Shown here piece after piece: positions 12,862 to 15,439 of a stretch of DNA of 64,000 nt. The notes under the pieces were generated by a model, which saw only the letters and a list, made by a program, of their open reading frames with translations, ran no database searches and had not been told where the DNA came from. Made by a program: the position numbers and the translations under genes. Location: positions 136,058-200,057 of the forward strand of contig JARLIG010000009.1 of the NCBI GenBank assembly GCA_031291825.1, given 5' to 3'. How positions within the stretch are numbered: the stretch's first letter is position 1; every line of letters begins with the position of its first letter. Source of the DNA: Minisyncoccota bacterium. Its GTDB lineage: Bacteria; Patescibacteriota; Minisyncoccia; Phycocordibacterales; UBA9973.

Positions 12862-13842
12862 TTAAGGTAAAATAGAAAGTTTATTTTTAAGTTTATAAGT
12901 ATTTCCACGAGAAAGCATTCCTAAATAAGACTGTTGGGACTCTTCTTTAGGATTTTCCTTTAATCGTTTGAACATCCTCCTTTTCGTACTAGTTCTTAAA
13001 ACTCTATGCTTTGAAAAATTAACCCAGCCGAGAAAATCAACTCCCGAAGCAATGGTTTTAATGTAAACCTTATCAGGATGTAATTGTAACTTTAATTCTT
13101 TCTCTAAGAAATCACTGATTTTTGGCAGCAATTCTTCAAGATACTTTTTGTCATCACTCAATATCACAAAATCATCCGCATATCGTATATAATGTTTTAC
13201 TTTTAATTCTCTTTTTACATATTGGTCAAACTCATTCATGTAAATATTCACTAGCAGTTGGGAAGTGAGATTACCGAGCGGTAAACCAACTTCAACTTCT
13301 GGCTTGGTGGAAAAACTATCTATTACTTGAAAAAGTAACCATAAAATATCTGTGTCAAAGACGGTCTTTGACAGTATCTCTTTTAATATTTCATGGTCAA
13401 TATTCGCAAAGAATTTTTTGATATCGCACTTCAAGACGAAACAAGTTTCTGTATTGTTTTTGGAAGCTTTGAGAGAGAAATCACGAAACCTGTTTACGGC
13501 TTTATGAGTTCCTTTATTTATCCTACAAGAATATGAATCGTGGATGAATTTAGAATCAAAATTTGGGTATAAAATTCTGTAAATTGCATGGTGAAGCAAT
13601 CTATCCCGGACATTTGCCTTGTGAATATTTCTTGGTTTTGGGTCTGAAATATTAAAAGCAACATATCCCCCATGTTTGTATGCTTTATTTCTTAAATCTT
13701 TATGTAGAGATAAAATATTATCCATAAAATGCAATTGAAAAATCTCCACATCTTCTTTATTTCTTTTTCCATGTAGAAATTCTTTCCAAGCCAGAAGCAA
13801 ATTTTCAACAGAGGTCATTTTTTCAAAATTTATTGCATCCAT
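12862..13842 (-). CDS. diversity-generating retroelement (DGR) reverse transcriptase
   Basis: Reverse-transcriptase motifs in order: RNIHKANVRDRLLHHAI, SYSCRINKGTHKA, VLKCDIKKFFANIDH. The DGR-diagnostic motif 4 is LGNLTSQ (I/LGxxxSQ rather than QGxxxSP). Motif 5 is YIRYADDFVIL. 326 aa from ATG 13842, the same size as BPP-1 bRT. Adjacent to the TR. Confidence 0.85.
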   Translation of the reverse strand: MDAINFEKMTSVENLLLAWKEFLHGKRNKEDVEIFQLHFMDNILSLHKDLRNKAYKHGGYVAFNISDPKPRNIHKANVRDRLLHHAIYRILYPNFDSKFIHDSYSCRINKGTHKAVNRFRDFSLKASKNNTETCFVLKCDIKKFFANIDHEILKEILSKTVFDTDILWLLFQVIDSFSTKPEVEVGLPLGNLTSQLLVNIYMNEFDQYVKRELKVKHYIRYADDFVILSDDKKYLEELLPKISDFLEKELKLQLHPDKVYIKTIASGVDFLGWVNFSKHRVLRTSTKRRMFKRLKENPKEESQQSYLGMLSRGNTYKLKNKLSILP

Positions 13843-13894
13843 GTTATGATTATAGTTTATCAGTATTAAAATTAAAAAAAAATGACAAATAAGA

Positions 13895-13903
13895 CCCCCC
13901 CCC
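13895..13903. repeat. C9 homopolymeric tract in the divergent RT / Avd-like intergenic region
   Basis: ccccccccc at 13895-13903 in an otherwise AT-rich intergenic region. Confidence 0.9.
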
Positions 13904-13948
13904 ACTTGGAAAATTTTACCAGTTTTAGAAATTATTAAAGGAGTTTAC

Positions 13949-14266
13949 ATAGAGTGGCAGAAATGTTTACCAACTATTCCGAAAACTTCGCGGTATACTT
14001 TAGCCGAAACAATAGACAAATATTTTATCCAAACCATTGAAAGTATTTTGGTTGCAAGTTTTTTGGAAAAACAAGAAAAACAGCCATTTGTCCGAAAAGC
14101 TATTATTTCACTTGATACTTTGAAATTTCTTTTATATATACTCTGGGAAATTAAAGCATTGGACACTAAAAAATTTACTGCTTTATCGGAATCACTTGCG
14201 ATAACTGGAAAACAACTCGGTGGTTGGCATGGACAACTTGTAAAACAAAACTCTCCCACAAAGTAG
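13949..14266 (+). CDS. Avd-like four-helix-bundle protein (DGR accessory variability determinant family), start codon uncertain
   Basis: The open frame from 13886 reads ..EWQKCLPTIPKTSRYTLAETIDKYFIQTIESIL..FVRKAIISLDTLKFLLYI..ALSESLAITGKQLGGW. It matches the four-helix-bundle / 23S IVS protein pattern (WQK, FPK-like, LGxW C-terminus). No canonical start codon lies upstream of the TTG at 14048. An AGGAG at 13938-13942 precedes an ATA at 13949. Confidence 0.45.
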   Translation: MEWQKCLPTIPKTSRYTLAETIDKYFIQTIESILVASFLEKQEKQPFVRKAIISLDTLKFLLYILWEIKALDTKKFTALSESLAITGKQLGGWHGQLVKQNSPTK

Positions 14267-14283
14267 GAGAGAAATGAAAAAAG

Positions 14284-14394
14284 TTGCGACGGAGAGCCGG
14301 GTTGCACGCATCCCAGACGTCGTCGAGGCGGTTCCAGTTCAGAATCACCTTGTCGCCATTCTCGATGAGATACGGCACATTATCGTCCTGGACG
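14284..14394 (-). repeat. DGR template repeat (TR), 111 bp
   Basis: 95 of 111 identity to the VR. All 16 differences are at TR adenines on the minus strand. Non-coding position between the Avd-like ORF and the target gene. Confidence 0.85.
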
Positions 14395-14712
14395 AACGTA
14401 TAAAACACCATCTGTGCCACCACCCTTTAAAATTCCTTCGGAATAGTTCGGGGTTGAATATTATTTCGCATAACAATGCGTCAGTATTCTATACCAAGTA
14501 TTTTCATTTTTTATGAAGTTTCTGCGTATATCACTCTGCTTGAAACCTTAATCTCAAACACTCTCGATATACGGATACTGGTCTCGGCAGAAAGAAATCG
14601 TAATCGCTTTCAGATTCGCCTACTACCATACTTAGTATATCAAAATATAAAACAAAAAGGCCTGGCACCATCACCGAAGTGACAACACAAGGCCTCAAGA
14701 TAAAACGAATGC

Positions 14713-14755
14713 AGGACTAAGATCAAAAATTCAAGAAAACCAAAGTCTTAGTCCT
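14713..14755 (-). promoter_or_regulatory. inverted repeat (10-bp stem aggactaaga/tcttagtcct) immediately 3' of the VR, DGR hairpin-like
   Basis: A perfect 10-bp inverted repeat directly after the target stop codon. A GU-rich hairpin with U-tract (about 14650-14700) lies further downstream on the minus strand. Confidence 0.5.
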
Positions 14756-14761
14756 TAGAAC

Positions 14762-15241
14762 TTACTTGCGACGGAGAGCCGGGTAGCACGCAACCCAGAC
14801 GTCGCCGAGGCGGCGCCAGAACAGAAGCACCCCGTCGCCATACTCGACGAGAAACGGCACATGACCGTCCCGGACGCTTCGCCAACCGAATATGGCCTTT
14901 CCCGCAAAATGCTTCCGGAAAAAATCGATGCCTTTGGTTTGTATCGCTTTGAGTTCGTCAAGGTCCACGCAACCAGCGAGCAGACCAGTTTCTTGCAGGT
15001 GTGAGTAAATCACGCGACCGCGTGTCCAGCCCGTCTTCTGGTCTTCGTGCAACCAAAGTTCGGTGCGACCCTCCACGATAGCGGTAACGATATCGCCACC
15101 ACGACGCAAAGAATCACGGATTCCAACGAGACGATCGCGTCCAGCTTGACCGAGCAGAGTGAGGTCCTCTGTTGTCCAACCTGCGGCTGCAAGTGAATTA
15201 CCAGTCTGACGCAACTGTCCATCTGAAAAGGTTGAAGACAT
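14762..15241 (-). CDS. DGR target (variable) protein, 159 aa, VR in C-terminal 37 codons
   Basis: The ORF carries the VR at its 3' end and is strikingly GC-rich. SD aaggag sits 7 nt upstream of the ATG. No signal peptide is evident. Confidence 0.8.
   Translation of the reverse strand: MSSTFSDGQLRQTGNSLAAAGWTTEDLTLLGQAGRDRLVGIRDSLRRGGDIVTAIVEGRTELWLHEDQKTGWTRGRVIYSHLQETGLLAGCVDLDELKAIQTKGIDFFRKHFAGKAIFGWRSVRDGHVPFLVEYGDGVLLFWRRLGDVWVACYPALRRK
14766..14876 (-). repeat. DGR variable repeat (VR), 111 bp
   Basis: Counterpart of the TR. All 16 substitutions fall on codon positions 1 or 2 of the target reading frame. GC-rich 3' end cccggctctccgtcgcaa is shared with the TR (IMH-like). Confidence 0.85.
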
Positions 15242-15313
15242 GTCTTTCTCCTTTATGGCACATGTGCCATTGCTGTTTGTATTTGGCTTTCGCCACAGCT
15301 TTTAAGAAACACT

Positions 15314-15439
15314 TGTCAAACACCCGATGTTTGACACTTTTATTTCCTTAAAGCTATGGCGATTACGTAATTTAAAAGAACTTATTAACCCATGTATTAT
15401 ACACCTAAATTGTATTTTGTCAATTACCCCGCTTGACAA
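15314..15439. promoter_or_regulatory. two operator-like inverted repeats TTGTCAA-N(9-11)-TTGACAA between the DGR target gene and cspA
   Basis: ttgtcaaacacccgatgtttgaca (15314-15336) and ttgtcaattaccccgcttgacaa (15417-15439). Confidence 0.4.

Follow-up and report, generated by a model that had tools for sequence, protein, structure and literature searches.

We are highly confident that the cassette described here is a chromosomal diversity-generating retroelement (DGR) with the CPR-specific B3 layout in a Candidatus Pacebacteria genome, for which we propose a mechanism and a putative gate on the avd gene. It lies in a stretch of 64,000 nucleotides (the window) from a Candidatus Pacebacteria MAG. 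The first-pass annotation had called it a DGR, and this call is well founded: the TR/VR pair is adenine-specific, VR forms the 3' terminus of the target ORF, the RT is bRT-like, an Avd homologue is present, the hairpin behind VR is conserved, and VR turns over in relatives. The genes are arranged in the order target, TR, inverted avd (on the opposite strand) and RT, which is architecture B3 of the CPR, and all related loci have the same TR-(avd)-RT order. The elements of the minus strand on which the call rests are the following.

14762..15241 (minus strand): target gene, 159 aa; 56% GC in a window of 37% GC
14766-14876 (minus strand): VR, last 37 codons of the target; hypervariable in the family alignment exactly at the TR-adenine codons
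14713..14755 (minus strand): post-VR stem-loop, 7 nt after the target stop codon
14284-14394 (minus strand): TR, 111 nt with 25 adenines, conserved in relatives
12862..13842 (minus strand): DGR RT gene, 326 aa; motif 4 LGNLTSQ, motif 5 YADD; Pfam RVT_1 2.3e-25

The ungapped alignment of minus strand 14394-14284 (TR) with 14876-14766 (VR) reproduced the 111-nt repeat pair that had been claimed, with 95 of 111 positions identical, and at either end of the 111 nt the homology breaks off sharply. The adenine specificity was confirmed as well. All 16 mismatches fall on TR adenines and the 86 non-adenine positions are all identical; the probability of placing 16 of 16 mismatches on the 25 A positions at random is C(25,16)/C(111,16) = 2.5e-13. 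As claimed, the changes are confined to two codon positions of the ORF 14762-15241, with eight at position 1 and eight at position 2, while the TR adenines themselves are distributed 9, 16 and 0 over positions 1, 2 and 3. The GC-rich 3' segment that had been compared with an IMH, CCCGGCTCTCCGTCGCAA, is indeed present in both repeats, and beyond index 91 of the TR/VR alignment, towards the 3' end, no adenine is substituted. Scanning the whole 64-kb window with TR words made degenerate (N) at every A returned no further VR. The TR/VR pairs of relatives contain 11-20 mismatches each, at most one of them at a non-A position. The TR of this genome has lost six adenines that are invariant in relatives, which suggests some erosion.

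The RT gene was described correctly: the ORF at 12862-13842 on the minus strand encodes 326 aa and contains both LGNLTSQ and YADD. Its best PDB match is the Bordetella phage bRT (8ub7_A, E 7.7e-45, residues 7-308), whereas the best group II intron RT scores 7.5e-22 and the retron-type RTs 1e-21. The DGR-clade signature (motif 4 [LIV]GxxxSQ with catalytic YxDD) is present as LGNLTSQ/YADD, the clade placement being made by structure-database scores. In one relative, L009, we observed a 2-nt deletion in the RT.

The cassette is a member of the CPR B3 group and nothing essential about it is different. It shares with these DGRs the gene order, the inverted avd, the host phylum and the chromosomal location, a small target without recognisable domain, signal peptide or TM segment, and the adenine specificity with A in the first two codon positions. 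CPR DGRs of this kind are reportedly also the subject of Paul et al. 2017. This architecture accounts for 90% of CPR DGRs (PMC5758913, Wu et al. 2018), and DGRs of this layout are abundant in CPR bacteria (PMC5758913; PMC8144416, DGR clade 2 of Roux et al. 2021).

Comparison of close relatives indicates that adenine-restricted turnover of VR occurs in nature and that the family is active. L013 and L014 have identical TRs and differ at 23 VR positions, 22 of which correspond to TR adenines. The cluster P0005 contains at least five VR alleles on identical N-terminal parts, and the target family alignment varies only at TR-adenine codons. Clusters 2-4 of the relatives kept the same VR across samples. 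The target of this genome is a single sequence (P0001, a cluster of one), and activity in this particular genome is putative.

The target protein consists of a helical N-terminal part and a C-terminal domain, the latter probably a minimal C-type-lectin-like fold; by eye, neither a signal peptide nor a TM segment is visible. Scores against the C-type-lectin-fold variable proteins of other DGRs (Mtd 1yu0, TvpA 2y3c) were weak, a Foldseek search gave no significant match, and the FGE-sulfatase and DUF1566 sequence signatures are absent. The target differs from Mtd and TvpA in being only 159 aa long and in its helical N-terminal part. The gene is flanked by its own putative expression signals.

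15423-15396 (minus strand): predicted target promoter TTGACA-16-TATAAT, promoter scan 12/12
15242..15423 (minus strand): target promoter and leader region, with a predicted structured leader of about 148 nt
14649..14695 (minus strand): GC-rich hairpin followed by a T-run; a covarying hairpin and then a T-run at the same place in relatives

In the predicted leader, 15361-15350 pairs with 15302-15291 to form a long stem, and a hairpin precedes the SD; on 10 lineages RNAalifold predicted 25 pairs, 8 of them covarying. The hairpin and T-run at 14649..14695 are likely the intrinsic terminator of the target gene.

Behind the VR stop we found the claimed 10-bp perfect inverted repeat, AGGACTAAGA/TCTTAGTCCT, at 14755-14746 and 14722-14713. 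The stem-loop has a folding energy of -15.7 kcal/mol here and of -14 to -26 kcal/mol in eight other lineages, with compensatory changes, and is a candidate homing or target-recognition structure. Its conservation agrees with the likening to the DGR homing hairpin, but its shape does not: the stem has 10 bp and the loop 23 nt here, relatives have a stem of three tiers, and the structure is long, unlike the short GC stem with a tetraloop of BPP-1.

TR is embedded in a larger structured RNA, predicted from the alignments as follows.

14634..14642 (minus strand): extended -10 promoter-like TGaTATACT preceding the TR RNA; alignments A2 and A3 both show it conserved
14398..14627 (minus strand): structured non-coding RNA upstream of TR (RNAalifold and pair counting, 15 lineages)
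14627-14525 (minus strand): helices H1-H5 of this RNA
14509-14495 (minus strand): 5' arm of a long-range duplex, pairing with 14286-14272 (helices 6 and 7)
14494-14398 (minus strand): H8-H10 domain of the RNA upstream of TR
14272..14286 (minus strand): 3' arm of the long-range duplex, made up of CAA (the final 3 nt of TR) and the flank CTTTTTTCATTT
14251..14271 (minus strand): stem-loop 12 nt downstream of TR, then TTTTGTTTTA; terminator scan, 9 pairs; overlaps the avd stop codon of the plus strand

The predicted RNA of about 385 nt enclosing TR is supported by covariation. Over 15 lineages and 72 pairs, 96% of the cells are paired, compared to 40-52% when the partners are slid, and compensatory changes occur at 38 of the 72 pairs, a number reached by none of 500 shuffles. 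In alignment A2 the long-range helices 6 and 7 are 96-100% paired, with one pair being GC in 8 sequences and AU in 6. Three of the four pairs counted in helix 11 (14271-14251) covary. This stem-loop is a candidate Avd-binding element and terminator of the TR RNA, and TGaTATACT would be the promoter of that RNA. Rfam contains no match for the RNA upstream of TR. A stem-loop 3' of TR and a duplex between upstream and downstream sequences have been described for DGR RNA (Handa et al., bioRxiv 10.1101/2023.10.23.563531). Both were found here (helix 11, and helices 6 and 7), conserved with covariation, and the types of RNA element match those of BPP-1 and 207 other DGRs.

We propose that this RNA would be transcribed from the extended -10 promoter at about 14642, through TR, to the hairpin and U-tract at about 14250. 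As a putative priming geometry, the long-range duplex would clamp the 3' boundary of TR to the conserved upstream segment, and TR would therefore sit in a closed loop. RT and Avd would copy TR into cDNA, misincorporating opposite adenines, and the cDNA would replace the last 37 codons of the cytoplasmic-looking target, recoding up to 25 first or second codon positions. The conserved stem-loop after VR would mark the recipient site.

Compared to the BPP-1 DGR (mtd-avd-TR-brt), the cassette is alike in its Avd homologue, the C-terminal VR, the GC-rich 3' segment of TR and VR and the presence of a post-VR hairpin. The RTs are homologous and of nearly equal length (328 aa in BPP-1), and both RNAs have a stem-loop just 3' of TR and a duplex joining the sequences upstream and downstream of it. 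However, BPP-1 is phage-borne and the element described here is cellular, and its avd is inverted and placed 3' of TR. The conserved accessory RNA (about 230 nt) is placed almost entirely 5' of TR, whereas BPP-1 has a 140-nt 3' spacer, and the strand predicted to pair with the TR 3' boundary is an upstream one. Over 18 nt the IMH-like segments of TR and VR do not differ at all, unlike those of BPP-1, and avd bears a slippery C-tract which the BPP-1 gene does not have.

The avd gene was absent from the first-pass annotation. It is positioned between RT and TR in the opposite orientation and consists of the following parts.

13882-14266 (plus strand): avd gene
13882..13938 (plus strand): avd start codon and short frame MTNKTPPHLENFTSFRNY, then a stop (three-frame translation); offset by +1 from the frame of the conserved avd ORF
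13895..13903 (plus strand): C9 homopolymer at avd codons 5-8; G9 on the RT/TR strand
13904..14266 (plus strand): conserved avd reading frame (TWKILPVLE...KQNSPTK, then a stop), inverted relative to RT, TR and target

NCBIfam DivGenRetAVD matches the C-terminal 72 aa of the avd product at 1.8e-6, and Pfam bAvd matches the frame-corrected protein at 1.6e-8. The Avd homologues form 120 clusters, nearly all with PF22296. Because of the C9 tract, which lies 53 nt upstream of the RT ATG of the other strand, the avd ATG is +1 out of frame. Eight or eleven cytosines would bring it into frame, and no in-frame ATG, GTG or TTG for the conserved frame occurs before 14048. The description of the DGR as complete was right in that an avd homologue exists, but it was made without seeing this gene, whose ATG is out of frame. 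Likewise, since the tract puts the ATG out of frame, the cassette is working-looking only if slippage restores the avd frame. Avd is essential in the Bordetella system.

This tract is the sole run of seven or more C or G in the 64 kb. It runs counter to codon usage, CCC being the rarest proline codon and CCC-CCC being used at none of 23 Pro-Pro dicodons. The arrangement of an ATG followed by a tract recurs in relatives: a C-tract occupies the same avd codons in all related loci with a readable avd 5' end except the degenerate copy L060. Homopolymer assembly errors are possible in low-coverage contigs such as L013, L014 and L060. The ATG is out of frame in most relatives too. Nevertheless, the median avd dN/dS among out-of-frame lineages is 0.11, and the gene is, by this measure, under strong purifying selection, including in those lineages. 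In the literature searched on CPR DGRs we found no description of a poly-C tract or frame problem at the avd 5' end, nor of a covariation-supported RNA upstream of TR or a structured target leader.

The C9 tract may be a slippage-dependent gate on Avd, acting via phase variation or recoding. We put at about even the chance that a C-tract kept by selection, with nine as its modal length, gates hypermutation in this CPR clade, together with an accessory RNA that is permuted relative to Bordetella. Avd, and hence diversification, would then arise only after slippage at the tract, which could be replicative (phase variation), transcriptional or ribosomal. With such a gate, a contingency switch or recoding site would be superimposed on a diversity generator, making mutagenesis itself stochastic, heritable and reversible.

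It is quite possible, if somewhat short of an even chance, that avd is a contingency locus at the DNA level, where slipped-strand mispairing adds or removes one base, most cells are OFF and a minority of ON cells diversify the target. Near-identical contigs differ in tract length. Between L023 (C10, in frame) and L024 (C11) the tract length is the only indel in 6.3 kb, and L009 (C10) and L010 (C8) flank an in-frame C9. Every observed tract length is at most one base from an in-frame length. The 120 Avd clusters comprise 44 full-length, in-frame proteins and 70 truncated gene calls, close to the one-third expected for drifting frames, and the close relative P0045 (93% identity) is in frame with an N-terminus exactly as predicted for C8. 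However, C9 is by far the commonest length and +1 the prevailing offset. Six lineages showed no length variation within lineages: over their 28 sample assemblies, both the tract (C9 or C10) and its +1 offset stayed constant in each lineage. These lineages, all of them +1, were picked via truncated gene calls and are therefore biased towards out-of-frame states; alleles retrieved via the target protein were +1 in eight cases, -1 in four and in frame in two. Minority alleles would be invisible in consensus assemblies. The uniformity of the 28 assemblies is not obviously expected from a fast DNA switch, and constitutive recoding fits it equally well.

Such recoding, programmed or leaky, with C9 as the normal low-expression form of avd, is possible but on the unlikely side. 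It could occur by +1 ribosomal slippage of tRNA-Pro on CCC-C close to the ORF start or by slippage of RNA polymerase, the run having the length of the 9-bp RNA-DNA hybrid. The same C9, offset by +1, recurs unchanged in many samples and in lineages with saturated synonymous sites, the downstream frame is under strong purifying selection, and the product predicted for a +1 shift, MTNKTPPTWKILPVLE, matches the in-frame alleles of relatives exactly. CCC-C close to a start codon is a known site prone to +1 shifts, whereas transcriptional slippage is documented chiefly at A/T runs. Recoding would, however, have to work in the opposite (-1) direction in four lineages (L001, L020, L010 and L013), many lineages are simply in frame, and we identified no stimulatory element.

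We consider it improbable that the cassette is an inactivated relic in which avd is a frameshifted pseudogene, TR is eroding and VR is frozen at its last state. The out-of-frame avd with no alternative start codon, the six missing TR adenines, the unchanged VRs of clusters 2-4 and the damaged RT of L009 would all agree with decay. On the other hand, zero non-adenine mismatches between TR and VR argue for a recent homing event, and the RT, the avd frame, the RNA helices and the post-VR hairpin are all intact. Purifying selection on avd was observed in exactly the out-of-frame lineages, and the sole defect is at the one site conserved as a homopolymer. Finally, a sequencing or assembly error in a truly in-frame (C8) avd of an ordinary, constitutive DGR is very improbable. 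Homopolymers do attract errors, and the coverage of some related contigs is as low as 2-5x. However, C9 was called identically in 20 assemblies that were built independently, and with different assemblers, from three lineages. If errors were scattered about a genuine in-frame length, the majority of alleles should have remained in frame, whereas most are not, and the long ORFs of the window show no frameshifts despite many A/T runs of 8-9.

The putative gate on avd resembles the poly-G/C contingency loci of Neisseria, Campylobacter and Haemophilus, and the contingency loci of phages (PMC12633550), in having a homopolymer of 8-12 G or C in the opening codons of an ORF and length differences of 1-2 bases between near-identical genomes that toggle the frame. 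Those loci gate surface antigens or restriction systems, whereas avd encodes a hypermutation cofactor in CPR hosts, and its tract is unusually uniform (C9) within several lineages.

The DGR as such is one more well-formed example of a class already abundant in CPR bacteria. The avd genes in these DGRs are systematically misannotated, being called as truncated ORFs from downstream TTG or ATG codons, and the covariation-supported TR RNA offers a CPR counterpart of the Bordetella DGR RNA for structural work. Part of the interest lies in the control of DGR activity, since the gene of an essential cofactor contains a conserved slippery homopolymer and is out of frame in most sequenced relatives, yet selected. 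If the tract is a switch, it would explain why many DGR targets appear static from sample to sample and others turn over. Tract length against VR heterogeneity in metagenomic reads would then provide a handle on when hypermutation is allowed.

The first-pass annotation had described a complete, working-looking diversity-generating retroelement (DGR) here. The TR/VR pair and the reverse transcriptase (RT) bear out the reading as a DGR, and it is a genuine and well-formed one. That it works cannot be demonstrated from the cassette as assembled, in which avd needs a frame correction. On the minus strand the TR (14394-14284) and the VR (14876-14766) align ungapped over 111 nt with 95 identities, as had been claimed, and the homology ends abruptly at either side. 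The adenine specificity is complete: all 16 mismatches fall on the 25 adenines of the TR, and the other 86 positions are identical. If 16 mismatches were placed at random over 111 positions, the chance that all would hit these adenines is 2.5e-13. The reported codon bias is also present, with 16 of 16 substitutions at position 1 or 2 of codons in the 159-aa target ORF (14762-15241, minus strand). The TR adenines themselves are distributed over position 1 (nine) and position 2 (16), with none at position 3. A scan with TR words that carried N in place of A found no second VR or target in the window besides the VR and TR. The lack of any non-adenine mismatch, in the single sequence available for this genome, argues for a recent homing event.

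We also compared the TR with eight related TRs. The relatives all agree in 67 columns, 23 of them A and 44 non-A. The window TR departs from them in six of these, especially at 14305-14321, and each of the six is an A column (chance ~1e-3). The codons affected change from AAC AAC to GAC GTC, from AAC to GAT and from AAC to TGC, and the adenine count is lowered to 25 from the 30-34 of the related TRs. Judging from these columns, the TR itself seems to have taken adenine-type mutations, via VR-to-TR conversion or homing into the TR. The latter would be permitted, since the IMH-like ends (the GC-rich 3' segment common to TR and VR) are identical over 18 nt. Target gene and TR form a GC island (14284-15241) with 53-67% GC, compared with 37% in the window and 31% in the AT-rich RT and avd. 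Since the non-VR part of the target also has 53% GC, adenine loss in the VR does not explain the island.

The ORF at 12862-13842 (minus strand), annotated as the RT, indeed encodes a 326-aa reverse transcriptase with LGNLTSQ and YADD (Pfam RVT_1, 2.3e-25). Its closest solved relative is bRT, the RT of the Bordetella phage BPP-1 DGR (8ub7_A, 328 aa; E 7.7e-45, residues 7-308 aligned), with group II intron RTs (7.5e-22) and retron-type RTs far behind. The first-pass annotation lacked avd: a homologue of this gene (13882-14266, plus strand) occupies the opposite strand between RT and TR. Its C-terminal 72 aa match NCBIfam DivGenRetAVD (1.8e-6) and the frame-corrected protein matches Pfam bAvd (1.6e-8), while a single-sequence search of PDB gave no match. 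The CPR B3 class of DGRs, with the layout target, TR, inverted avd, RT, has been on record since 2017. Every related locus examined had target, TR, (avd) and RT in this order. It is the order of B3, so the cassette as a DGR falls within this already known class. B3 accounts for 90% of CPR DGRs (Wu et al. 2018, PMC5758913).

By eye, the cassette is flanked by housekeeping genes (an ABC-F protein, a cold-shock protein and ABC transporters). Its relatives occupy other chromosomal contexts, e.g. between Sua5/YciO at one end and Nramp and MurB at the opposite end, and the gene surroundings of the window cassette and its relatives gave no sign of phage. A hypothetical protein encoded on a 211-kb contig of a Candidatus Pacebacteria MAG is identical to the target, so the host is a CPR bacterium. 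The target has no match in Pfam, NCBIfam or a PDB sequence search, and none of the 44 clusters of its homologues is annotated. CPR DGR targets typically have no recognisable domain (Roux et al. 2021, PMC8144416). The family alignment is conserved to about residue 122, hypervariable exactly at the TR-adenine-templated codons, and conserved again at the PALRRK end. An AlphaFold model built from it is confident (pLDDT 91), and by this model the target likely carries a minimal C-type-lectin fold. Four sets of related loci (L031, L032-34, L035-38 and L039-59) combine the same RT/avd/TR-RNA backbone with different, longer targets (183-220 aa); the L032 cassette adjoins the genes for ribosomal proteins S7 and S12.

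In thirteen related loci, which represent nine distinct sequences, TR and VR mismatch at 11-20 positions, and almost all of these are TR adenines. Two near-identical contigs from two groundwater wells, L013 and L014, have identical TRs and VRs that differ at 23 sites, 22 of them TR adenines. One target cluster at 90% identity (P0005) combines identical N-terminal parts with five or more different VR alleles; other target clusters keep a single VR across samples. With VR turnover in some relatives and a static VR in others, the family diversifies in nature, though not everywhere or always. Within the RT gene, L013:5911-6005 has 15 substitutions in 95 nt relative to the otherwise 99% identical L014. 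They are not adenine-specific and could be a recombination patch or an assembly mosaic. Contig L023 reads N at three positions of its TR (4788, 4824 and 4855), for which L024, at 99.9% identity, gives C, C and T; this may reflect read ambiguity between the repeats or TR polymorphism.

The cassette contains the following promoter and RNA elements:

within 15242-15423, minus strand: target promoter TTGACA-16-TATAAT, perfect sigma-70-type
15361-15350 with 15302-15291, minus strand: 21-bp stem of the target leader
14695-14649, minus strand: ordinary terminator after the VR stem-loop
14642-14634, minus strand: extended -10-like element TGaTATACT
14620-14586 and 14573-14525, minus strand: two hairpin domains
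14509-14495 with 14286-14272 (the last three TR bases and the 3' flank), minus strand: long-range duplex
14494-14398, minus strand: three-helix domain that stops 4 nt short of the TR
14271-14251, minus strand: stem-loop, 12 nt past the TR
14271-14242, minus strand: the same stem-loop with its T-run, a hairpin that closes the TR-containing unit

The 367 nt that separate VR from TR are no mere "spacer" but are conserved as part of a ~400-nt unit that runs from the extended -10-like element through the TR to the hairpin with the T-run. Fifteen lineages have the unit, and in three of these the DGR diversifies proteins other than this target. RNAalifold on these lineages gave 72 pairs outside the TR with 96% of cells paired, compared with 40-52% when partners were slid by 1-3 columns. 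Compensatory changes were found in 38 pairs (8-20 in the slid controls), and 0 of 500 shuffles attained the observed pairing or compensation values. The TR-flanking RNA matched no Rfam family. The inverted repeat noted after the VR is real (14755-14713) and corresponds to a three-tier stem-loop that nine lineages conserve, with compensatory changes.

The Bordetella DGR RNA has an Avd-binding stem-loop directly 3' of the TR, a template:primer duplex at the TR 3' end and an upstream:downstream "stop" duplex, and related elements were predicted in 207 other DGRs, CPR ones included (Handa et al., bioRxiv 10.1101/2023.10.23.563531). The elements flanking the TR in the window are of the same kinds. 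However, nearly all of the accessory RNA lies upstream of the TR, and the strand that pairs with the TR 3' boundary also comes from upstream. We infer that cDNA synthesis would begin at or beside G14287. At the extreme 3' end, TR and VR of the relatives differ as C/T at the paired C (two lineages) and as A/G one base further on (L003); these three cases fit such a start.

The conserved target leader (~148 nt) also contains a variable apical hairpin and a covarying hairpin directly before the Shine-Dalgarno sequence. Compensatory changes occur in 8 of its 25 predicted pairs, and the leader may be regulatory. Rfam gave no family for it, only a sub-threshold preQ1-II hit (25.6 bits with a gathering score of 47, E 0.26) that we treated as a chance match.

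The avd ATG (13882) is followed by four codons and then by a C9 tract (13895-13903). Relative to this ATG, the conserved avd frame (TWKILPVLE..., stop at 14266) is shifted by +1; C8 or C11 would bring the two into register. The window has no ATG, GTG or TTG in the avd frame before 14048, and a start at 14048 would remove helix 1. The tract is the sole C or G run of at least 7 across the 64-kb window. It is not explained by coding needs, since CCC is the rarest Pro codon here (10%) and CCC-CCC occurs in 0 of 23 Pro-Pro dicodons in long ORFs. Read on the opposite strand it is G9 and precedes the RT start by 53 nt (by 24 nt in L009); given this place in the RT leader/promoter region, it may also affect the RT.

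An ATG and a C-tract stand at the same avd codons in every related locus with a readable avd 5' end, except the degenerate L060. Fourteen distinct alleles retrieved via the target protein, a sample unbiased for the avd frame, have tracts of 5-12 (mode C9), all at most one base from an in-frame length, and only L008 (C8) and L023 (C10) are in frame. L023 differs from L024 by one C in the tract, which is the only indel over 6.3 kb. L009 (C10) and L010 (C8) flank the in-frame C9, with 0 substitutions in 2.6 kb. This pair also differs by a 2-nt (AG) indel in the RT 5' part (L009:1725) that frameshifts the RT in L009, and in their lineage RT and avd are arranged head to head with overlapping start codons. 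Another six lineages, chosen via truncated gene calls, all have an ATG and C9 (one C10) with the +1 offset, identical in 28 of 28 sample assemblies. In the L061-63 lineage C9 is in frame, since the sequence after the tract is one base shorter.

The Avd proteins fall into 120 clusters, of which 44 are full-length and begin with M..KTPP(P)..LPVLE and 70 are truncated calls with various downstream starts. The C-tract has thus led to systematic mis-annotation of Avd in public databases: about 70 of the 120 clusters (P0069-P0147 and others) begin at arbitrary starts, e.g. MKSAY.., MPTIPK.. or MWQSY.., and some carry names such as 'uncharacterized membrane protein'. The median avd dN/dS among out-of-frame lineages is 0.11, with synonymous sites near saturation, so over evolutionary time the downstream frame has clearly been translated. 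In the literature covered by full-text searches and in the text of Roux et al. 2021 (PMC8144416), no paper connects a DGR or avd with homopolymers, phase variation or frameshifting.

Two readings of the C-tract remain. DNA-level phase variation is a tenable way of switching avd, to which we give somewhat under an even chance. Tract length differs between near-identical contigs, in-frame and out-of-frame alleles are mixed across the family, and close relatives are in frame. Recoding, in which avd is decoded by ribosomal or transcriptional slippage at the tract, is somewhat less likely. In its favour, C9 and its +1 offset are uniform both inside lineages and between them, and the predicted +1 product has the same sequence as the in-frame alleles. 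That the tract is an assembly artefact is unlikely, because many independent assemblies give identical tract calls and out-of-frame states predominate.

Several simpler solutions were rejected. A plain avd pseudogene as the main reading is ruled out by purifying selection (dN/dS ~0.11). A downstream start as a general solution fails because no ATG, GTG or TTG stands in frame between tract and helix 1 in the window, L008 or L013/L014, and it is also contradicted by the residues from the tract to LPVLE, which are conserved in the avd frame. One fixed direction of programmed frameshifting does not suit lineages that differ in needing +1 or -1. The Avd clusters P0058 and P0081 do not give a clean comparison as an ON/OFF allele pair of one lineage, as the L060 tract is degenerate and the post-tract sequence differs.

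The features that deserve follow-up are the conserved slippery tract of avd and the permuted, covariation-supported DGR RNA. Through either phase variation or recoding, the C-tract would gate the supply of Avd and, with it, diversification.
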